Positions 34,961 through 64,000 of a stretch of DNA of 64,000 nucleotides are shown here, piece after piece. The translations under genes and the position numbers were made by a program. Numbering within the stretch: the first letter of the stretch is position 1; each line of letters begins with the position of its first letter. Origin of the DNA: a virus (Duplodnaviria; Caudoviricetes); IMG/VR virus record IMGVR_UViG_3300035686_000003, positions 32,001 through 96,000 of that record, one strand, 5' to 3'. The notes below the pieces were generated by a model. That model did no database searches, was not told the origin of the DNA, and saw nothing but the letters and a program-made list of their open reading frames with translations.

Positions 34961-35455
34961 ATGACCGTAGCTCCATCTAACCCCTCTGAAATCAAAGGTA
35001 GTGGAATCCTTGGTGGTGGTGGATGCTTCGTTGCGGACACCCTGATTTGGACTGAGGACGGAACCAAGCCGATCCGTGACATTCGTGAAGGCGATCGCGT
35101 CTTATGCTTCGACAGTCACCGAAAGCTGCACTTTAGCGAAGTAATTGCAACATCGTTCCATTGCAACTATGACGTGTGGCGCTATAGGTTCTGGGGTGGT
35201 GAGTTCATTGCGACTCCCAACCACTATGTTTATACCGAGCAGAATGCATTCCAAGAGATCGGGAAGCTTGAGAGAGACGCACCCCTCTACAACTCCTCTT
35301 GGCAAGTGCTACCTCTTGAGTCATCGGTTTACATTGGCAAGGCTAATGTTTACAACTTCTGGGTGGCAGGTTATCACACATACTTTGTTACAGAGTCAGC
35401 GATAGCCGTCCACAACGGCAAACACAAAAAAGGAGCTTATCTTTTGCAAGAATAA
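34961..35455 (+). CDS. Orphan Hint (BIL/intein-like) protein, a truncated duplicate of the tail-tip J 5' end
   Basis: GSGILGGGG|CFVADT...ATPNH...VYNFWV..YHTY...VHN|G; Hint domain 35024-35416. Confidence 0.8.
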   Translation: MTVAPSNPSEIKGSGILGGGGCFVADTLIWTEDGTKPIRDIREGDRVLCFDSHRKLHFSEVIATSFHCNYDVWRYRFWGGEFIATPNHYVYTEQNAFQEIGKLERDAPLYNSSWQVLPLESSVYIGKANVYNFWVAGYHTYFVTESAIAVHNGKHKKGAYLLQE

Positions 35456-36240: not shown

Positions 36241-38976
36241 ATGTCAAATGTCGCTAACCATTACGACCCATACTCTCAAATCACTGGTTCTGGTCTACTG
36301 GGTGGCGGCTGTTTTGTTGGCGAAACTGTTGTTCTTACTCCAAGTGGACACAAGTTTTTAAAGGATCTTAGGGTTGGAGATAGCGTTTTTTCGTACAAGC
36401 CAACAGGAGAGTTGGTTAATGGAAAAATTGTCGAAACTCATTTCCATGAAAAATATTTAGTCAACGAATATGTTTTGTGGCAAACGCAATTTGTTGCCAC
36501 ACCTAATCATCACGTCTTAACAGAAAATAACGCCTACAAACAAATACAACACTTCAAAATTAACGAGTGTTTAGTTGATGCATTAGGCGAACTTCAGCCA
36601 CTTGTTGCAGTTGAGAACGTTTCGCAACCCCGTGATGTTTACAATCTTACGGTAGAGCCTTATCACAACTATTTAATTACTGAAAAAGGAATAAGAGTTT
36701 CCAATGGGGGAGGTGGAAAATCTTCTGGAGGTGGCAAAGCTGAGGATGACGCATACAAAAGCAATGCAACAGCTTACATCCTTGAACTCTTGTCAGCGGG
36801 AGTAGTCGAAGGTATCGTTGGTGGGCAGAAGGGAATCTTTCTCGACAAGACACCAATCCAGAACGAAGATGGAACGTTAAACTTTAAGAATTTTAAGTAC
36901 GACTTTCGACCTGGCACCCAATATCAGGAATTCATGCCAGGTTATGCCGATGAGATTTCATCAGAGAAGTCGGTAGACCAAGAAGTTAAGAAATCCCAGC
37001 CAGTAGCTCGAACAGTCATCTCCTCTCAGATTGATGGCATTCGAGTTCGCATCGCCCTGCAACAGCAGAAGTACGAAGAGAACGGTGATGTTGTTGGCAT
37101 GGAAATGAGGTACAGGATTTATCTCAAGCAAGGAGGTGGTGCATTCGAGTTACGTGTCGATAAAGAAAAGGAAGGTCGGTTCTCATCGCTCACAGAATTT
37201 GAGTACTACTTGCCCGTCAACAACATGGGCGGAACCATTGACCAGTTCACTGTGAGAGTGGAAAAGGTCACGGATGACGTTGAAGATGGAGACACAAAGA
37301 AGCAACAGGTACTGAAGTGGCAGTCGTACACAGAAGTTATTGAGACAAAGCTAAGGTATGCTCATTCAGCAATCATTGGTGAGCAGTTCAATCCCAAAGA
37401 CTTTTCCTCAATCCCTTCAAGGCAATATAAACTAGCTGGTATACTAGTCCAGATTCCCAGCAACACAGTAGTTGATCCTGTTGACAGAGGATTGAACTTT
37501 ACTTCAGCTATCTGGGATGGGACATTCTACACTCCTGCATTAGCTTGTGCTGACCCTGCTTGGATTGCCTACTACCTGCTCACTGACCCTATCAATGGAC
37601 TCGGTAGATACATCGATGCCCCCTCCATAGATCGGTGGAGCTTGTATCGTGCAAGTCACTACAACAATGAGAAAGTACCCAACGGTTTAGGGGGGCTAGA
37701 GCGACGATTTTCGTGCCATACGGTACTTCAGCAACGAGAGGATGCTTGGAAGGTTCTAGAGGCTGTTTTTTCATCGTTCAACTGTTCCCACTATTGGGCA
37801 GATGGCACAGTGTACTTTGTACAAGACAGACCTCTTGCTCCTGGTGAAGAATACAAGTGGCAGTTCACCCAAGCAGACGTTGAAGGTGGTCAGTTCAGCT
37901 ATAGCTACTCTGCACTACGATCACGTTCATCAGTCGCAATGGTTACTTGGAATGACCCTAGCGACTATTACAATCAAACCATTGAGCCTGTCGAAGATCC
38001 TGAAGGTCTAGCAAAGTACGGGTACAAGGAGATTGAATTTGCTGCGTTTGGGTGCATCTCCAGAGGTCAAGCGATTAGGAAAGGTCGATATGTCTTGTTC
38101 TCGAACAATCGAGAGACACAGACGGTCACGTTTTCTGCTCGCTCATGGGCAGCTTACGTTCGTCCTGGTGAGATTATCCAGATTGCTGATGCTCAACGGG
38201 CAGCTATCCGTTATGGAGGATTAGTCAAAGCTTCTACGCCAGAGACGGTAACCCTTGATGCGCCAATCCAGATTCTTTCAACGGGTTATCGCATCACTTG
38301 CATGACAGCAGCAGGAACATTGCAGACCAGAAACATTACGAATGCTCTTGGGTCAACTCCTTCTGTAGCTGTAGACAAAGTTTTTACCATACCTATTCTT
38401 CCTGAGTCAAACTGGGTTGTTGCTTTGCCTAGCATCTTGCCGCAACTGTTCCGAGTCATCTCAAACTCATCTGACCCAAACGATCCGACGAAGCACACAA
38501 TCACAGCGATACAGTACATCCCAGAGAAGTTCAACTTCATTGAAAATGGATGGGCAATTCCTGATCGTCCCATTCGACAAACTGTACCTGTCATTGTTGC
38601 TCAGCCGCGATCGCCTACTTTAGCTTCAACGACTGTCAATGGTTCACCTAACTTAATCGTTAGCTGGCTACAGGCAACCAATCTTATCGACTACATTGAT
38701 CCTTTCGTGGATTCCTATGAAGTTGAGTGGTCACGAGACGGTATTACTTGGAATGAATCTCGAATTGTCGTAGGTACGAGTACTATTTACAACAATATAG
38801 TTCCTGGTATCTACTATGCACGAGTACGTTCTATCGATATTCAAGGAAAGGTTTCTGGACACGTTTTCACAGCCCCACACACAGTTCAAGTGGTATTGAC
38901 GCCACCAACACCCATTACAACTGAAAGTCAAAACTTTAGCAACTCTGGTAACTCTAGTAACGTTTGGTTATTTTAA
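36241..38976 (+). CDS. Tail tip / central tail hub protein (lambda J-like) with N-terminal Hint domain and C-terminal FN3-like domain
   Basis: ELLSAGVVEG, IFLDKTPIQN, DPAWIAYYLLT, IDRWSLY, FGCISRGQA.R.G; Hint domain 36310-36705 (C...SN|G). Confidence 0.9.
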   Translation: MSNVANHYDPYSQITGSGLLGGGCFVGETVVLTPSGHKFLKDLRVGDSVFSYKPTGELVNGKIVETHFHEKYLVNEYVLWQTQFVATPNHHVLTENNAYKQIQHFKINECLVDALGELQPLVAVENVSQPRDVYNLTVEPYHNYLITEKGIRVSNGGGGKSSGGGKAEDDAYKSNATAYILELLSAGVVEGIVGGQKGIFLDKTPIQNEDGTLNFKNFKYDFRPGTQYQEFMPGYADEISSEKSVDQEVKKSQPVARTVISSQIDGIRVRIALQQQKYEENGDVVGMEMRYRIYLKQGGGAFELRVDKEKEGRFSSLTEFEYYLPVNNMGGTIDQFTVRVEKVTDDVEDGDTKKQQVLKWQSYTEVIETKLRYAHSAIIGEQFNPKDFSSIPSRQYKLAGILVQIPSNTVVDPVDRGLNFTSAIWDGTFYTPALACADPAWIAYYLLTDPINGLGRYIDAPSIDRWSLYRASHYNNEKVPNGLGGLERRFSCHTVLQQREDAWKVLEAVFSSFNCSHYWADGTVYFVQDRPLAPGEEYKWQFTQADVEGGQFSYSYSALRSRSSVAMVTWNDPSDYYNQTIEPVEDPEGLAKYGYKEIEFAAFGCISRGQAIRKGRYVLFSNNRETQTVTFSARSWAAYVRPGEIIQIADAQRAAIRYGGLVKASTPETVTLDAPIQILSTGYRITCMTAAGTLQTRNITNALGSTPSVAVDKVFTIPILPESNWVVALPSILPQLFRVISNSSDPNDPTKHTITAIQYIPEKFNFIENGWAIPDRPIRQTVPVIVAQPRSPTLASTTVNGSPNLIVSWLQATNLIDYIDPFVDSYEVEWSRDGITWNESRIVVGTSTIYNNIVPGIYYARVRSIDIQGKVSGHVFTAPHTVQVVLTPPTPITTESQNFSNSGNSSNVWLF

Positions 38977-40235: not shown

Positions 40236-43200
40236 TTATAGAACCTCTCTCAAAAATGCAGTGTACTCTTCGTCTTCTAACTTTAAACCAAAGACCCCTA
40301 CGAAAGTCAATGATTCATCGATAATGTTGCCATAGTCTTCAACCACTTGATCGTGCAACAAACACTTCATAGATGTCCCTGCGTGATCTTCTACCCTGCA
40401 AAGTTGGTAAAGTTTGCCAGTTTTTGCAGTTTTAGGCTTCTCCCTTTCAACAATAGTGCAAGCAACGGTGAAAGAGTCCTTGAACTTGGGAATGTACAAC
40501 TCTTCCTCAGAATCTTCGTCAGGCATAACTGGGAAGAGATCCTGCTGCTCCAAATCGTCAAGGGGATTGCCACTTATAAAGAACCCGATAGCATCTTGTT
40601 CCTGCCTTAATTTTTCTTCAAAGGTAAAGTCTTCATCCATCTCAGGTAAGGTAAAAACGAATTGCTCCTTGACTTCCAAAAGCTCTAACTGTTTCTTGCG
40701 AATAAAGTTTACATGCTCCTGCTTTGTTTTCTTCAACGGGCTGTAAGCTTGTTCGTAAGCATCTAGAGCCTCTAAGGTGGGTTCTATTTTTAGCTTTTCG
40801 TATCTCTTGGCTAGAGACTCTTGGATTCTTGCTATTCTCTCTGGCAACTTTAGCAGATTGGCTTTCCATTCTTTCAGCAAAGGGATAGCTGAAATTAGTT
40901 GTTTACGATTGCTGTGAAGGCTATCAAAAGCACCAGAATAGGTCAAAGATTGTAGTCCGGTACTATTAACTCCAGTTCTTTGATAAAAGTCAACGATGTC
41001 GGTAAACTTTTCGGACTCGCGAGCGTCAAGTATGTTTGTGATCGCCACTTCACCTAATCTGTTGATTGTCTTAAAGCCAAAGAGAATGTCATCGCCATTA
41101 GGAGTAAACAACAACTTTGATGTATTAATGTCGGGAGGTAAAATTTTAATCCCCATATCTCGACATTTGTTGAGGTACTTAGATACCTTATCTCGCTTAT
41201 CCTGCCCATCTTGATAAGACATTAAGGCTGACATATATTCAGCACTGTAATGAGCTTTCAGTAACGCACAAGCTAAGCTTTGGTAAGCGTAAGACAAACT
41301 GTGGCTCTTATTGAAGCTATAGCCTGACTGATATTCAATGAACTGAAAGAGTTTTTCGGCAATTTCTTTCGTTTGTCCTTTTGCAATCGCCCCTTGAACG
41401 AACTTCTCTGCCTCTTTTTTAATTTCTTCAGTCTTTTTCTTGCCAATACATCTGCGAAGATTATCTGCTTGTCCCAAGGTGTAATCAGAAATATCTTGAG
41501 CAATTTTCAGAGCTTGTTCTTGATAAACTAAGCAGGCGTAAGTACTAGAAAGGATAGGCTCTAGTTCTGGAATCATATATTCCATCGGTTGCCGCCCATG
41601 TTTACGATTGATAAACAAAGGCACTTCTCCAGCATCTAAAGCGCCCGGACGAAACAAAGCGTTCGCACCAGATAAATCTTCAATGTTGTCAGGCTTAAGG
41701 TCTTTGAGCATAGCCTTCATACCTGAAGATTCAAACTGAAATATGCCATCTGTTTCTCCGGTGCGATAGAGATCGTAAACCTTGTCATCTTCCAGCAAGT
41801 CAAGCCTTTCCATATCAGGAATTTGACCTCTGTTTTCCTTAATCATGTCAAGCGCCTTCTTGACAATCGTTAGGTTCTTAAGACCGAGGAAGTCCATCTT
41901 GATAAAGCCCATCTTCTCAATTTGATTCATATCGTATTGAGTACAGACTCCATCTTCCTTGGTCTTCATCAAGGGCACCCACTCACTCAACGGAGTATCG
42001 GAAATAACAATTCCTGCTGCATGAGTTCCATAGGTCTTGACATTTCCTTCTAGATTCATCGCAATGTCAATCCAGTTTTTAAACTCTGGCTCCTTGCGAT
42101 ATCTATCACGAAACTCTAGGCTAGGTGAGTCTTCGGCAATCATATTCTTTAGCTTCTCAGGATTGCCACGACGAACAGGTATTAGTTTGGCAGTTAGCTT
42201 TGAATCCGCAATCGGTAAGTCTAAAACTCTTGCTACTTCTTTTACAACAGCCTTAGAAGTAAGGCGATTATAGGTTCCAATCTGAGCAACTTTGTCACGT
42301 CCGTACTTTGTTATCACGTAGTCAACGACTTCGCCACGCCGCTCCTGACAAAAGTCACTGTCAATATCAGGCATGGACTTTCGTTCAGGGTTTAAGAATC
42401 TCTCAAAAAGTAACCCATGATAAACAGGATCGATGTTCGTGATTTCAAGAGCATAGCAAACCAAAGAGCCAGCAGCAGAACCACGACCCGCTCCAGTAGG
42501 AATGTCTTGTGACTTCGCAAAAGCTATACAATCGTGAACAAACAAGAAGTAAGATTCAAACCCCTTCTGGTGCAGAACATCTAGTTCATAGTTAAGACGC
42601 TCCCTATAGACTTCAACAAGTTCTTGGTTCCAGTTTTTGATTTTTCCTTGAGCCGCTAACCGACCAATGACTTCTAGACGCTTCTCCAATCCCTCCTCAG
42701 CTAAAGTACGCAAATGCGCCTCAGCAGTTACTCCAGTAGGCAGGGGAAACTCTGGTGCTGTTGGTGAGCGATACAATTCGTAATGTTGTACCTTGTCAGC
42801 TAACTTTACTGTGTTAGTGATCGCAGAATCCAGAATCTTGTCCCTTTCATCGGGGGTCAGGTAGGTGAAACGAGACTTTAGATCTGTTCCATCAGCCAAA
42901 AACAAGTCTCTGTCATAATGAAACTTTTCTTGGTCAAGTTCACTCAGCTTCTTCCCATACTTGATGCAATAAAGGACTTGGTGAAACTCGTAGTCACAAG
43001 CATTGAGGTAATGTGTGTCAGGTGTCACCACGAACTCAATGCCTAGCTCTCTCCCCAGCTTGATCAAACCTCGATTGAGTCGAGAATAGATCTTCTGGGA
43101 ATCATGACTTTGAAGTTCAATGTAATAATCTTCACCAAACACTTCCTTGTATTCAGACGCAATCTTCCGTGCTTCCTCGTACTCATCATGAATGATCAAC

Positions 43201-57810: not shown

Positions 57811-59646
57811 TCACGAGATGAGTTTGAATTTTTTCATCAAATCATTGCGTTGAGTCTTGATTAGAAGGCTTAATATTTGTGCCTTTACTTCAGCTACTCT
57901 TCTAGTTTCCCCTAGTTCTTGCTCAATGAAATCATCAAGATCGATGTGGGAGGTCGTGTTTAGCTTACCAAGAACGATGTCGCTTTGTGACTTGACAGTT
58001 GCCACAGCAAGGTTCAACCCCTGACGTTCAGTGGGCGTTAGAGCGTCTTTAGCTGCTATTGCAGTTCTAGTTTTACTTTGGTCTTGCGGAAGTTCAACAC
58101 TGTCAAGTGTAAACTGAGTTTTCGGATGCCACTTCCCATTAAATTCAACAATTCTGTCAGAAAGATCTCGTTTTGCGTTGCGAGGTGGTTCGTTATTTTT
58201 CAGTTCGCCCCAGTTACGTGCAGTCGCATCGAAGAGGTTTACGTTCCAAGTAACAGAACTGCCTGTAATGGTTGGAATTTCAACTCCAGGAGCGATCGCC
58301 GCAAAGCAAACCCTGAGTTTAGTTAGGTTACTCATCAAAGCAAGCTTGTTGATGTTTCCTTGAGGAGAACCAAACCAAACATACTTTCCACGCTTGTCTC
58401 CACCAGAAACCAATGAAGCACAAAGGTTCATCAATAGTTCCATTAGCTCTTTAGCAGCAGAAGCCAGATCCTCGCTTTCTTTTTTCTTTACGTCTCTCTC
58501 TAGTGACTGAGCCAAGAAATAAAACTCGTCAACAATCAAGAGACAAGGGTTGTCGTCTCTGGCATTCTTGAGGTAGTCCCTGATAACCACAATAAAAGAT
58601 TCGTAGGCATCAGTCTTATCAACGACATCTCCCAGATCAAAGAATTGCGTTTTAGTGCAATGTGCCCAATACTCAGGATCTTCGCCCTGTTTGGCTAGTG
58701 AGCTAATCGAATAAACTTTGTTGAATCTCCCCCTTTGCAATCCAATTTTGCTGGAGATTGCCATGAGCAATGATTTGCCGCATCTTTGTCCACCAATAAA
58801 GACAATTGAGTCAACGCACTCCAAGATGAAATCTACGATGTCTTTAGTTTTTTCGGATCGTTTAGCCATTTCGATTACACTTGGTTGTGAGATTTGTTCC
58901 TGCAAACGGGTGAAGGGTTCTTGAAGCTGAGTCGGGATAGACTCTACATCTGTTTCAACGAATACGGGAGCAGGCTTTGGAATAACAGTTTGCTTTGGTA
59001 GTTGAGGACGCTTTGAACTAGGAAGGGCAATGCTAGCCGTATATTCGTTTGCAAGATCTTCGCAAGCATCAAGAACTTCCTCATATCTCCAGCCTTTGCA
59101 ACGAGCTACGTGGTCAATCGCTTTGGTTAAGGGGTTGTCGCCTTTGTAACTAATCTCTCCATCGACAACTGTTACATCAACTGCCTCCTCAACAGCTTCC
59201 AAGAACAAGTCCGTGCCTGCAATTTTCCAAAGGCTAGCCCAATAGACTGTTGGTGACGAAGAAATAGCTAACCTCACTTGCTCAGAGGTTTTCTCTAGCT
59301 TCATTATTTTTGCCTGTTGAGTTCCCGCTGACCCAAGAAGCCCTATCATTCCGGCTCCAGCAAGCACAGGTATAACAGCTGCTCCAATAACACCTAATGT
59401 GGCACAAGAGCTAATTGCAAGTCCTCCAAGTAGCATTCCGCTTAAGCTCAAGGTAGCATTGGTTCTTTCAACGGCATGGCACTCTTTTTCAAGCTTTTTT
59501 AGTCCATTCAGCAATCTACCCAGAACATCAATGCGGTCTGCAACCGGGGTATCAGGAGTTACATTTGCAACTTGGATTAAGTCGTCAAATGGAGAGTTGA
59601 CTAAGCTTCGAGTTAATGCCAGTTCACCTTTGGATAATCTGTTCAT
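57811..59646 (-). CDS. Membrane-anchored FtsK/HerA-like P-loop ATPase
   Basis: Two N-terminal hydrophobic helices; Walker A GGQRCGKS, Walker B LLIVDE, downstream GSPQ. Confidence 0.7.
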   Translation of the reverse strand: MNRLSKGELALTRSLVNSPFDDLIQVANVTPDTPVADRIDVLGRLLNGLKKLEKECHAVERTNATLSLSGMLLGGLAISSCATLGVIGAAVIPVLAGAGMIGLLGSAGTQQAKIMKLEKTSEQVRLAISSSPTVYWASLWKIAGTDLFLEAVEEAVDVTVVDGEISYKGDNPLTKAIDHVARCKGWRYEEVLDACEDLANEYTASIALPSSKRPQLPKQTVIPKPAPVFVETDVESIPTQLQEPFTRLQEQISQPSVIEMAKRSEKTKDIVDFILECVDSIVFIGGQRCGKSLLMAISSKIGLQRGRFNKVYSISSLAKQGEDPEYWAHCTKTQFFDLGDVVDKTDAYESFIVVIRDYLKNARDDNPCLLIVDEFYFLAQSLERDVKKKESEDLASAAKELMELLMNLCASLVSGGDKRGKYVWFGSPQGNINKLALMSNLTKLRVCFAAIAPGVEIPTITGSSVTWNVNLFDATARNWGELKNNEPPRNAKRDLSDRIVEFNGKWHPKTQFTLDSVELPQDQSKTRTAIAAKDALTPTERQGLNLAVATVKSQSDIVLGKLNTTSHIDLDDFIEQELGETRRVAEVKAQILSLLIKTQRNDLMKKFKLIS

Positions 59647-59681
59647 GATCTTAAGCGGAACGCCTCGTGTAGATTCATTGA

Positions 59682-60440
59682 TTACATTTTGCGAGCAGAG
59701 ATATCGACCGTTGGTGCTTCACGTCTTGGTTCGCCACCACCTCTCGAAGATTGTCCTCCCTTGGCTTGCTGGTGCCCCTCATGGATAGCTTCTGCAATAT
59801 CGCAAGCAGCACTGAGCAAAGAGATCGTAACTTCGGGTAACACTAGTGTCACAATGAGCATCAGCATTCCTTGAAAGCTGAGAGACAGAACAGTTGCCCA
59901 AAACACTAGCTGAATAGCAGTCTCAACCAGGTAGGAAAGATACCTGCCTCTCTCTAACGTTCGATGAGAGAAAGTATGCCAGTTCATCAGACGCTCTGAG
60001 ACTCCTTCTGGCAAATCTTTAGCTTTGGGGTCAATGTTTTTGTTAACGTAAGCTTTGGCAATTTTCTTTTTTACTCTCCAAAGACTAGGGAATAATTGAT
60101 ACACGTTGAAACCAATGCCAGCTAATATTCCTAGTGTTCCAGCACCAATCCCAACAAGGACACCCCCAAGACCCAGAGCTTTTGCAGCCCAAACTCCAAT
60201 CGCACTCCACTGGTAACCAGCAGCAATCATCACTCCCGCAAAAATAGCAGCTGCAACAAACACAACAGCATCAGCAGTTGCAAGTACCTCAAGTAAAGTC
60301 TTAATTGCAAAAGTTGTCAGATTAAAGGTGTTATGGATGAACTCGCTAATCAGGTGGACTATCGATTTGCCAAAACTGAAGATCTTCTGCATGATTGCAG
60401 TAATTTTTTCATTCAGAGACTTGTCGTTTCCTTTGGACAT
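59682..60440 (-). CDS. Multi-pass membrane protein
   Basis: About four hydrophobic segments. Confidence 0.7.
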   Translation of the reverse strand: MSKGNDKSLNEKITAIMQKIFSFGKSIVHLISEFIHNTFNLTTFAIKTLLEVLATADAVVFVAAAIFAGVMIAAGYQWSAIGVWAAKALGLGGVLVGIGAGTLGILAGIGFNVYQLFPSLWRVKKKIAKAYVNKNIDPKAKDLPEGVSERLMNWHTFSHRTLERGRYLSYLVETAIQLVFWATVLSLSFQGMLMLIVTLVLPEVTISLLSAACDIAEAIHEGHQQAKGGQSSRGGGEPRREAPTVDISARKM

Positions 60441-60444
60441 GGCT

Positions 60445-60822
60445 TTACTTTCCTGCTTTGATTAAAGAGATTTGAGCATCAAGTTCTTTTTGGGTAAAAA
60501 GGTGTTGCACTTGTAACTGACTGTTATGATATGCAGCGTGACCAATTTTCCCGCTGGGATCTTTGAAACAAGAAGTTGGACTTCTGCCATCAGCGTGCAG
60601 TTGTATAACGTCACCAATTAACATCGGTCTAACAACTTTTTGACAGTTATTGACGAGCGAATGTCTAGCCACAGTATCTAAAGCTTTACTTCTGGAAACT
60701 TGCGCTCTACTAGATGTAAGGTTTTGTGCGAGCTGTGCCGACATTGATAGAACAGCACAGCCTGCGAGAATGGCAAAACTAATATGTTTGGCGTACAGAG
60801 GAGCAATCTTCATCAGCCCCAC
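60445..60822 (-). CDS. Small single-pass or exported protein
   Basis: N-terminal hydrophobic helix, two Cys in the soluble part. Confidence 0.6.
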   Translation of the reverse strand: MGLMKIAPLYAKHISFAILAGCAVLSMSAQLAQNLTSSRAQVSRSKALDTVARHSLVNNCQKVVRPMLIGDVIQLHADGRSPTSCFKDPSGKIGHAAYHNSQLQVQHLFTQKELDAQISLIKAGK

Positions 60823-61511
60823 ACCTCGTCTAAAAAAGAGTCAGTATCAAACTCAACCTTTGAATCCACCGAAGCCTGTCGCTCAACAGTTACTTGCTGT
60901 CTTCTTGTAGTCCGTTGATTCTCCCGTTCCTTCATCTCCTCAAGGAACTCGTCAACATTGACCTCTTCAACCTTGGTCACCTTCTTGTCAACGATCTTCT
61001 GGATATTAGTCGATGACAGTAAGTTGTCCAACACTTCTTCTTGCTCAGCCATTGCGTCAAGGATTCTGTTTGAGTAATCCTTTTGCCGCTGTTGCCAAGC
61101 AGCAACGAAAGTTTTCTCTTGTACTTCCGCTAGCAAATTTGCCCGTTGTTGTTCCCGGTTTGCAATGCTTGTTGCGATCGCGAATAACACTCTGTCAGAG
61201 AATCCAATGTTCTGAGCGGTCAACACCGACTTGGCACTTTTTACTAGCTCAGTTGTGTCTTGCAAGACTAATGCTTCCGTTTGTTCACTACAGTCGCTAG
61301 GGGTCTGTGTTGGTGTAACTGGTGCGGTGCCAGCAAGTTCCTTAGTTTGCTTGACTGCGAATCCCAATGCTTCAAGGGATTCAAATGCTGAAACAACGTC
61401 TTCTTCAGATATGTTATCGCTGTTTTCTGTGTACCCCATAGCTTTTAGAGCAGCTGTCGCATTTTCTTGGGGGTAGCAATCTAAATCTTTTAATGCTTCT
61501 GTAAAGTTCAT
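60813..61511 (-). CDS. Acidic coiled-coil protein
   Basis: 232-aa ORF heading the membrane/ATPase run. Confidence 0.65.
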   Translation of the reverse strand: MNFTEALKDLDCYPQENATAALKAMGYTENSDNISEEDVVSAFESLEALGFAVKQTKELAGTAPVTPTQTPSDCSEQTEALVLQDTTELVKSAKSVLTAQNIGFSDRVLFAIATSIANREQQRANLLAEVQEKTFVAAWQQRQKDYSNRILDAMAEQEEVLDNLLSSTNIQKIVDKKVTKVEEVNVDEFLEEMKERENQRTTRRQQVTVERQASVDSKVEFDTDSFLDEVWG

Positions 61512-61682
61512 GGTCTTCGTTACTTGCGCTTAGTTTTCTGTGTCTTACAACACTATAACACGACGATTAGCAATTGTCGGCTTTTCGACAACAAATATTC
61601 ATTACTATTGCGCTATGAAACGAAGAATATGGATTAGAAATTTTGATGGTAGAAAATACTTAGAGCCAGAGCTACTCCAAGC

Positions 61683-62066
61683 CTATGAGAATAGCCATGA
61701 CTCTACTACTTCTCTTTTCAATGCGAGAATCTTCTTTTTCCCTGACTCATCGGTTCCTCCAATCCAATCGCGAATATCTGCGTACTCACAAATGCTATGT
61801 ACTTCTTGGCACCAGGCAATCATCATAAGGAAAAATTTCTGGTAGAAGTCCAGCTTCTTCCGATTCTTCCTGTTTCCCCAATAAAGGATACGCACCAAAG
61901 AAATCGAACTATCAACAATCTCTCGTTCCCAGTTGTAGATCGTCCGTTCGGTGACGGACAGAACTTTAGCCCATTCTTCACGAGAGGAAAGGGTTTTTAG
62001 ATCGTCCTTGCTTGCCCCAAACATATTCAGCAAGGTACTTAGGTAATATGCCTCTTGAGTCTCCAT
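61683..62066 (-). CDS. Helix-turn-helix DNA-binding protein
   Basis: SREEWAKVLSVTERTIYNWE; ATG 62066 preferred because the longer track ORF runs through the repeat array. Confidence 0.65.
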   Translation of the reverse strand: METQEAYYLSTLLNMFGASKDDLKTLSSREEWAKVLSVTERTIYNWEREIVDSSISLVRILYWGNRKNRKKLDFYQKFFLMMIAWCQEVHSICEYADIRDWIGGTDESGKKKILALKREVVESWLFS

Positions 62067-62159
62067 GTTTTCTACTAATATTAATTCCTTGTAAAGTTTA
62101 ACACTAATTTGTATTTTCAGCCAATTGTTATCACAAAGGTTTGTAGATTTGTTTGTCCG

Positions 62160-62392
62160 AATCCGGAAACGACCCAGAAACGAGTCAGAACCCACCCAGA
62201 AAGGACTCGGAAAGTGCCTAATGATAGTGGTTCGCAATAGTGGACTAAAATTTTGCGAATGAAACTATAGAAAACGAGTGATTTACTTGAGCTGCATCTG
62301 TGAAACCCTTATGGCAGTAAGGTGTTTTATTTGAGGGGTATGTGAATCCCAGATTCTTTGTCGCAATAGTAAATCCAGAAAGGACTCGGAAA
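62160..62392 (+). repeat. Five 11-bp-period 8-mer repeats plus an 18-bp direct repeat
   Basis: AATCCGGA/GACCCAGA/GAGTCAGA/CACCCAGA/GACTCGGA at 62160, 62171, 62182, 62193, 62204; CCAGAAAGGACTCGGAAA at 62196 and 62375. Confidence 0.7.
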
Positions 62393-62580
62393 ATCGGTCT
62401 TATATTGACGTATTGTGGGTCAGAAATCGGAACTTCCGGATTTGCTCACACCGTTTCCGGATTTTGCTGGTAGTATTTATTCCTATGAGTTTGAAAGTTG
62501 GAAGCAGTTCCTTACTTCTTCATTGTTCTTGACTCTGTTATCACAGAAGATGTTCCCGACAATGAGGTAAGCTCGACAAC

Positions 62581-62610
62581 TTGACAACTCGACCGTCCAT
62601 CTACTAAGCT
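62581..62610 (+). promoter_or_regulatory. Putative promoter of the rightward small-gene operon
   Basis: TTGACA-N18-TAAGCT. Confidence 0.45.
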
Positions 62611-63018: not shown

Positions 63019-63290
63019 TGGCTACAGAAGAATTAACCATTGAACACGTAAGGCGATTTGCGCCATACCAATTGTTCCAGTGTGTATCTCCCGATGGGAG
63101 TGAGTATCTGTTGGAGTTGCAGGAGATGGACGTTGATGCTGCCATTGAAGCAGATGTGTTTCATATCAAAAACCTTAACAGCTCTGATCCTGTTGCAGTA
63201 ATGGACTTTGCTAACCTAAAGCTGACATTGCAGACCATCAAAACTTATGTACCCTGTTGGACAAACACCTGGGATAGATTAGTGCATTAA
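63018..63290 (+). CDS. Hypothetical protein
   Basis: 90 aa, TGATG overlap. Confidence 0.6.
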   Translation: MATEELTIEHVRRFAPYQLFQCVSPDGSEYLLELQEMDVDAAIEADVFHIKNLNSSDPVAVMDFANLKLTLQTIKTYVPCWTNTWDRLVH

Positions 63291-63298
63291 AGGAAACC

Positions 63299-63445
63299 AT
63301 GAAGATAATCACTGCTGGGCTTTTCATCGTTACGATTCTTGCTACAGCTCAGTTGCTCACTGACTTCACGCCTATTTATGCAGACGCCCAACCGGAACCC
63401 ACAGAATCTTCGCCCCCACGAGGAGGTGGACGAAGAGATATTTAA
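63299..63445 (+). CDS. 48-aa PatX/PatS-like secreted peptide, absent from the ORF track
   Basis: MKIITAGLFIVTILATAQLLTDFTPIYADAQPEPTESSPPRGGGRRDI; AGGA RBS; terminator follows. Confidence 0.7.
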   Translation: MKIITAGLFIVTILATAQLLTDFTPIYADAQPEPTESSPPRGGGRRDI

Positions 63446-63471
63446 CTTCAAAGGTTAGCGAACCTACCTTC

Positions 63472-63499
63472 AGCCCTGTGGGAAACTACGGGGCTTTTT
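63472..63499 (+). terminator. Intrinsic terminator after the peptide gene
   Basis: AGCCCTGTGG GAAA CTACGGGGCT TTTT. Confidence 0.7.
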
Positions 63500-63550: not shown

Positions 63551-64000
63551 GTGGCTTTTGGGAAACAAGAGTTTGAGCTAAAAGATTTTGTACAAGAGCA
63601 AACTCAGCGGCTAGCAGAAGAGACACCCAATGAAGAGAGTTGTGGATTTATTCTTCGGGATGACAATGTTATTCGGTGCAAGAATGTATTCTACAATCCA
63701 ATGCTCGATGATAAGGACGAGCAGGCACTTGCCGAACTCATGGATGAGTTAATTATTCGTGACGTGTCGCTCGAACAACCTTTGGACAAGGTTCGTGAGG
63801 CAATCTCGGTTAGGACAGGTATCGCAATATCAGCTCGCGATCGCTTAGCAGCAGATAGCAAAGGTATTGCTGCTGTGTGGCATTCCCACTGTCTCGATTC
63901 CTCACCAGGGATGCTGACCTACGAGGATAATCCAGCGCTAGGGATTCATTCGGACATCACACAATCGAAGCTGCAACGGTTACCTTATGTGATGTACCAT
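63551..64000 (+). CDS. JAB/MPN domain protein (lambda gpK-like), truncated by the window end
   Basis: GAGGAG RBS, GTG start; PNEESCGFI...VWHSH...SDI...PY; 150 open codons. Confidence 0.75.
   Translation, partial: MAFGKQEFELKDFVQEQTQRLAEETPNEESCGFILRDDNVIRCKNVFYNPMLDDKDEQALAELMDELIIRDVSLEQPLDKVREAISVRTGIAISARDRLAADSKGIAAVWHSHCLDSSPGMLTYEDNPALGIHSDITQSKLQRLPYVMYH

Follow-up and report, generated by a model that had tools for sequence, protein, structure and literature searches.

We have identified a phage gene for a small protein that resembles PatX of cyanobacteria. Descent from PatX or mimicry of it is probable, allowing for the many genomes scanned. We hypothesize, at a probability of about one half, that the gene encodes a shortened PatX-type precursor that acts as an inhibitor of HetR, so that infected filaments stay whole and do not differentiate. 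The gene lies in a segment that close relatives of the phage lack, and its product combines a signal-like N-terminus with a C-terminal RGGGRR motif whose placement and tail are those of PatX.

The phage, the gene and its cassette

The window analyzed here is a stretch of 64,000 nt, positions 32001-96000 of a 147,706-bp virus record that is rated complete (genome G000). The genome includes genes for the major head protein, portal, helicases and tail; no pentapeptide-repeat (HetL-like) gene was found in it. The best genome matches of its SSB are in Leptolyngbyaceae, Microcoleus, Coleofasciculus and Elainella (66-79% identity), and it holds 65 HIP1 (GCGATCGC) sites. By these sequence features the host is a cyanobacterium, and the SSB matches make a filamentous one likely; the phage origin and cyanobacterial host given in the initial annotation are thus supported. 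A four-helix-bundle gene has its best matches on cyanobacterial plasmids, and a DNA search for the host returned only generic matches of about 70% in the ribonucleotide-reductase region. At least eight palindromic hexamers are nearly absent from the genome and many restriction palindromes are strongly avoided, which suggests a host with many restriction systems. Both genome ends (G000 1-60 and 147650-147706) fall in the same 21-nt tandem repeat, within a gene with PPIGNEL repeats, and the record probably represents a circular or permuted genome that was broken at this repeat. The tail tip attachment protein J (window 36241-38976, +) has an N-terminal HINT (intein-like) domain, and such a domain also occurs in a small protein at 34961-35455 (+).

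The PatX-like gene is the last in a short rightward series, after three small genes with which it is probably co-transcribed, and is followed by a JAB-domain tail gene (Table 1). The adjoining 90-aa gene is conserved in related phages, and translational coupling to it is possible, as judged from the junction. A 48-codon gene with its own ribosome-binding site and terminator had been described initially, and this is confirmed by the open reading frame at 63299-63445, the AAGGA and the 10-bp hairpin with its T run. The hairpin is more stable than most shuffled versions (z = -2.25; 4 of 200 shuffles equally stable). Gene callers had also called an identical 48-aa gene in two other assemblies, where the region is 100% identical; these probably derive from the same sample as this phage. 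Codon usage was uninformative for every gene of this size.

Table 1. Features of the PatX-like gene and its surroundings (window positions)
Feature	Position	Strand	Basis and remarks
PatX-like precursor gene, 48 aa (P0001)	63299..63445	+	Translation without internal stop; ends RGGGRR-DI-stop
Shine-Dalgarno-like AAGGA	63290..63294	+	Sequence; overlaps stop codon of upstream 90-aa gene, 4 nt before ATG
Putative Sec-type signal region, residues 1-28/30	63299..63388	+	Hydropathy; cleavage site inferred
Motif codons P40-R41-G-G-G-R45-R46-D47-I48	63416..63442	+	Sequence
Intrinsic terminator-like hairpin, 10 bp, with T run	63472..63499	+	Sequence; folding versus shuffles
Accessory cassette, ~205 nt (SD, ORF, most of terminator)	63275..63480		Absent from L012, L014, L015, L270; edges approximate
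Three small upstream genes, 56 aa, 69 aa, 90 aa	62637..63290	+	ORFs; 56-aa product RHH-like by eye
Candidate sigma70-type promoter of small rightward operon (TTGACA, 18 nt, TAAGCT)	62581..62610	+	Read by eye; under the scanner's threshold
JAB-domain tail-tip gene, 310 aa, extends past window	63551..64000	+	Domain match; conserved in relatives, marks insertion site

The predicted protein begins with Met-Lys and a hydrophobic segment (residues 3-20; Kyte-Doolittle 9-mers up to 2.8), and has two A-x-A sites, A15-x-A17 and A28-x-A30. Signal peptidase would most likely cut after A28 or A30, with Pro25 as a helix breaker; a cut after A17 is the alternative. An acidic Pro/Ser linker (residues 29-40) leads to RGGGRR at residues 41-46. 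The signal-like start, A-x-A site and Pro linker of the initial annotation therefore stand, but PPRGGGRR is not at the very C-terminus, as Asp-Ile follow, an ending in line with RR[ED][hydrophobic], the tail of the PatX family. By the XRGSGR rule of PMC4649674, the active hexapeptide is predicted to be residues 40-45.

Since close relatives miss exactly this segment of ~205 nt, we regard the peptide gene as a self-contained accessory cassette. Fixed anchors are 359 nt apart here and 154-155 nt apart in related phages, and DNA alignment with them opens a single gap of ~200 nt that spans the Shine-Dalgarno sequence, the ORF and most of the terminator. In the relatives (L012-L015, and L270 with G001, which together span about 143 kb), the flanking 90-aa and JAB genes are kept along with the entire leftward operon, at 30-70% identity. 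The search for syntenic small ORFs in related cyanophages, proposed in the initial annotation, accordingly came out negative: the peptide gene was not found in any of these relatives despite their kept flanks. A PatX profile search of the near-complete relative G001+G655 gave no match, and a metagenome scan with the JAB neighbor gene as query gave distant matches only. As the relatives are closer to one another, gain of the cassette here and its loss in the relatives are indistinguishable.

The leftward operon (window 57811-62237, -) encodes an HTH protein, a coiled-coil protein, a 125-aa secreted-like protein, a multi-TM protein and a 611-aa membrane-anchored FtsK/HerA-like ATPase, which belongs to large unnamed clusters in Cyanobacteriota. 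Its gene order is conserved in all related phages found, and the peptide gene is not co-conserved with it, so that the two do not form an obligate unit. In the divergent control region (window 62160-62465), short AATCCGGA-like repeats form an array that is also seen at L012:6900-7320 and L270:3080-3590 and that may serve the HTH protein as operator or centromere-like sites. The array includes TCCGGA (DIF1-like) copies. We rejected these as a DIF1 promoter of the PatX-like gene: no TCCGGA lies near the gene, and the nearest copy is 843 nt upstream, in an array shared with relatives that lack the gene. DIF1 lies 54-63 nt upstream of Nostocales-type patX and is missing within 400 nt in most of the non-heterocystous patX examined.

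Resemblance to PatX

Only two families match the protein at all. One is NCBIfam PatX, which aligns to residues 23-47 with 13.7 bits (E 0.081), far under the cut-off of 30 bits. The model is insensitive, since only 1 of 81 Leptolyngbyales genomes has a match over the cut-off and hetR-adjacent copies are missed too. A score of 13.7 bits is unconvincing by itself, because the best six-frame match in the same genome (window 42818-42868, +; 13.9 bits) runs antisense to dnaE and lacks a start codon, and was rejected for this; the case rests on architecture. In order to rank the protein, 166 PatX sequences were collected and two profiles were built with the phage protein left out. Both placed it first (E about 0.03) among 7,164 small ORFs (start to stop, 25-110 aa) from two phage records, and none of 5000 tail shuffles reached its score. 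The comparison with a PatX profile HMM suggested in the initial annotation thus had a split outcome, the curated cut-off being missed and first rank being reached with both profiles built without the phage protein. As a lead only, the three nearest among 7.7 million ESM clusters are PatX (0.80-0.82; 165-172 shared features).

The small phage protein has the C-terminal motif, the P at -2 and the RR[ED]h tail by which membership in the family is judged. It shares the invariant R, G, G and R, as well as P at -2 (62% of the family), R at +5 (78%) and an acidic residue at +6 (72%). It departs from the family in its motif offset, which is 40 (start at residue 41) versus a minimum of 48 among the 166 PatX, and in the Pro directly before the motif, found in 1% of PatX. 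The PatX-like architecture and motif noted initially are therefore supported by profile ranking, motif placement and tail. Since the profile score is below the cut-off, RGGGR stands in place of a strict RG[S/T]GR and no DIF1 promoter is present, we call the protein PatX-like and not PatX, despite this architecture.

We considered whether the motif is incidental or disused. The gene would then encode a small accessory protein that is secreted or anchored in the membrane, such as a factor for exclusion or in the envelope, or would be a decaying, functionless hitch-hiker fragment of a host patX. Chance RGSGR motifs do occur elsewhere in the genome, one antisense to dnaE and another within the small DNA-binding-like ORF at 117976; the gene is a singleton with a sub-threshold profile score; and where many genomes are scanned, rare coincidences get picked up. 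However, only 7 small ORFs of the phage genome combine a Shine-Dalgarno sequence, a signal-like N-terminus and a polar tail, and the expected number with a chance RGxGR among them is about 0.004 per genome for this loose motif. A longer PatX-like pattern, partly chosen post hoc, is expected about 4e-6 times. Placement and tail match PatX beyond the five motif residues, and the Shine-Dalgarno sequence, ORF and terminator are intact inside a clean indel of 205 nt. An incidental motif is hence rather unlikely.

The ORF at G000 117976-118185 (+; 69 aa) was rejected as a further copy. Its RGSGR, at residues 9-13 in a basic tail, lies before an RHH/CopG-like segment and without a signal region, and is probably due to chance. 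Two RGSGR-stop stretches lie within dnaE, one antisense (window 42818-42868, +) and one in another frame (43710, -), and a syntenic off-frame RGSGR in the relative G001 near 76619 is explained by conserved dnaE codons.

Searches for homologs found the protein itself and no other in 5.8 billion proteins or in IMG/VR. A single-sequence search of 401 cyanobacterial genomes gave noise only, GenBank phages gave no homolog and a single match at E = 5, which has no start codon, and a plasmid search gave nothing. Of about 40 translated sequences from other viral contigs that match the motif, none has PatX-like architecture, and three IMG/VR motif scans (61 loci) revealed no second signal-peptide gene, with patterns narrow enough to miss other forms of phage patX. 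The gene is therefore known from a single phage, our narrow-pattern scans having given no second phage copy. A literature search that excluded subscription papers found no published case of a phage-encoded PatX or PatS, in agreement with the initial annotation, which knew of no phage-borne patX.

The middle residue of the motif is Ser in about 95-98% of PatX and Gly in about 1-2%. Among the chromosomal RGGGR genes, P0276 immediately follows hetR, two further patX genes lie upstream, and the Gly of P0276 is fixed in all six members of its cluster. P0259 is at the FAD-oxidoreductase locus typical of many patX, L163 holds a Microcoleus-type chromosomal paralog (58.7 bits), and P0241 has RGGGR as a second cassette. 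RGGGR is a natural minority allele of PatX. In the structure of the HetR hood with PatS6, four main-chain and eight arginine hydrogen bonds are made, the serine adds one, and the side chain of the first residue is irrelevant to binding (PMC4649674). With twelve bonds from backbone and arginines and one from serine, RGGGR should bind HetR, perhaps more weakly; we found no paper that tests this binding. The concern that the S/T-to-G change alters activity is thus reduced by the genuine chromosomal RGGGR genes, although weaker binding is still conceivable.

Several patX loci showed further variation. At the hetR locus L266:1-3231, the three flanking patX-family genes have, respectively, RGSGR, an apparently missing or broken motif, and RGGGR. 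The Microcoleus-type paralog (L101, L102, L162, L163, L164 and L172, at about 1500-1700) adjoins coaE and usually tldD, and ends at the motif, whose middle residue varies among S, T, E and G. Six chromosomal PatX-family precursors (P0130, P0132, P0133, P0153, P0176 and P0221) have a single signal peptide followed by 2 to 6 RGSGR cassettes in tandem.

Proposed action on the host

In the proposed mechanism, the precursor would come from a 205-nt cassette that the phage has either acquired or retained where a small regulatory operon ends. It would be transcribed with this operon and translated, as its Shine-Dalgarno sequence, terminator and context suggest, and its signal peptide would take it through Sec to the periplasm, in keeping with its hydropathy and the biology of PatX (PMC12756182). 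Signal peptidase and a host PatP-type peptidase would trim it to a hexapeptide around RGGGR. This peptide would spread along the filament, dock in the hood cleft of HetR with its backbone and two arginines, and so weaken DNA binding by HetR, as expected from PMC4649674. More speculatively, the fates that HetR drives would be damped: heterocysts or, in hosts that make none, necridia and fragmentation. Neighboring cells would then stay vegetative, connected and usable by the phage.

Several of these steps have precedents. Nostoc PatX requires Sec export and is cut by periplasmic PatP, and the hexapeptide blocks HetR DNA binding; a PatP-type peptidase is present across cyanobacteria (PMC12756182). 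Loss of the inhibitors leaves HetR unrestrained and brings necridia, fragmentation and lysis, so that a phage would most likely use the peptide to hold HetR down; the authors of that work proposed that the HetR-inhibitor circuit first served filament fragmentation (PMC7761841). Our broader idea is offered tentatively: in phages of filamentous cyanobacteria, an exported peptide of the PatX type may serve as a morphogen that the virus itself encodes. It would silence HetR both in the infected cell and in those next to it, suppress differentiation and the making of sacrificial cells (necridia), and thereby leave the filament intact for the spread of the phage.

In the non-heterocystous Leptolyngbya BL0902, the effects of patX are basically independent of hetR (PMC11298460). 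This result would count against inhibition of HetR by the phage peptide, as would the relatives without the gene, the sub-cut-off score and the rare Pro and Gly. It would instead favor a PatX-derived peptide with another role in the host, one that acts on another PatX target or serves as a weak agonist or decoy occupying PatP or the import route. With a decoy or agonist HetR activity would rise, filaments would fragment more and their infected pieces would disperse better. Without the Ser-Glu253 bond, and with Pro at -1 and a short linker, processing or affinity could differ, and the extra Microcoleus-type patX, away from hetR and variable at its middle residue (S/T/E/G), hints at more than one target or at relaxed specificity. 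We nevertheless judge such a role unlikely, given that an RGGGR patX directly adjoins hetR, with the allele fixed in its cluster, and that the chromosomal RGGGR/RGEGR copies examined are at coaE-tldD, hetR or FAD oxidoreductase, none by a sensor or receptor gene.

Very unlikely is an arbitrium-like signal between phages, in which a phage receptor would read the exported peptide and decide between lysis and persistence: the architecture predicted here, with a signal peptide, short mature peptide and own terminator, is also that of AimP, and the operon is shared with a small RHH-like regulator, but no hetR, tyrosine integrase or above-cut-off ParA was found in the phage genome, the neighbors (genes of 56, 69 and 90 aa and the JAB tail gene) include no large repeat-type receptor, relatives have the same neighbors and no peptide, and the motif matches a host family. 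The scan for a hetR-like or peptide-receptor gene proposed in the initial annotation thus found no hetR-like gene in the genome and no obvious receptor-sized gene among the neighbors, and the arbitrium-like alternative that it had raised gained no support, with no integrase, no true ParA and no receptor gene beside the peptide gene.

If the broader idea is correct, HetR would have an anti-phage or firebreak role in non-heterocystous cyanobacteria. If the peptide inhibits HetR, a virus would be using a diffusible inhibitor of a bacterial Turing-type patterning circuit, a use for which we found no published case. The phage peptide would then also be a handle on what HetR and PatX do in filamentous cyanobacteria without heterocysts, and it could link phage infection to nitrogen fixation or to filament dispersal in mats and soil crusts.

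Comparison with known systems

The closest known relative is PatX itself (Asl2332 of Nostoc/Anabaena PCC 7120; NF047413, PF28278). Like PatX, the phage protein is small, has no catalytic domain, and joins a putative signal region and a polar Pro linker to a P-x-R-G-x-G-R-R-[DE]-hydrophobic tail; its RGGGR is a minority allele within PatX. Unlike most single-cassette PatX, which have 55-80 residues, it has 48, with the motif at least 8 residues nearer the start. It also differs in scoring below the curated cut-off, in having no DIF1 promoter, and in being phage-borne, beside neither hetR nor a FAD oxidoreductase.

With PatS and HetN the phage protein shares the R-G-x-G-R core, which docks in the HetR hood cleft (PMC4649674). 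PatS is a cytoplasmic peptide of 13-17 aa that ends at the motif and HetN is a large reductase-like protein, and neither has a Sec signal (PMC12756182, PMC7761841). The phage protein differs from PatS in its 48 residues, its putative signal region and the residues after its motif.

AimP, the arbitrium precursor of Bacillus phages, is likewise phage-encoded, small and exported, and gives rise to a hexapeptide. Unlike the arbitrium system, no AimR-type receptor or lysogeny module was found here, and the motif is that of a host signal and is not phage-specific. Firmicutes phages also carry mimics of host signaling, among them Phr/Rap, AgrD-type peptides and sporulation regulators. As in those cases, the phage described here bears a piece of a host communication or developmental circuit; unlike them, its proposed target is a pattern-forming regulator of a multicellular cyanobacterium.
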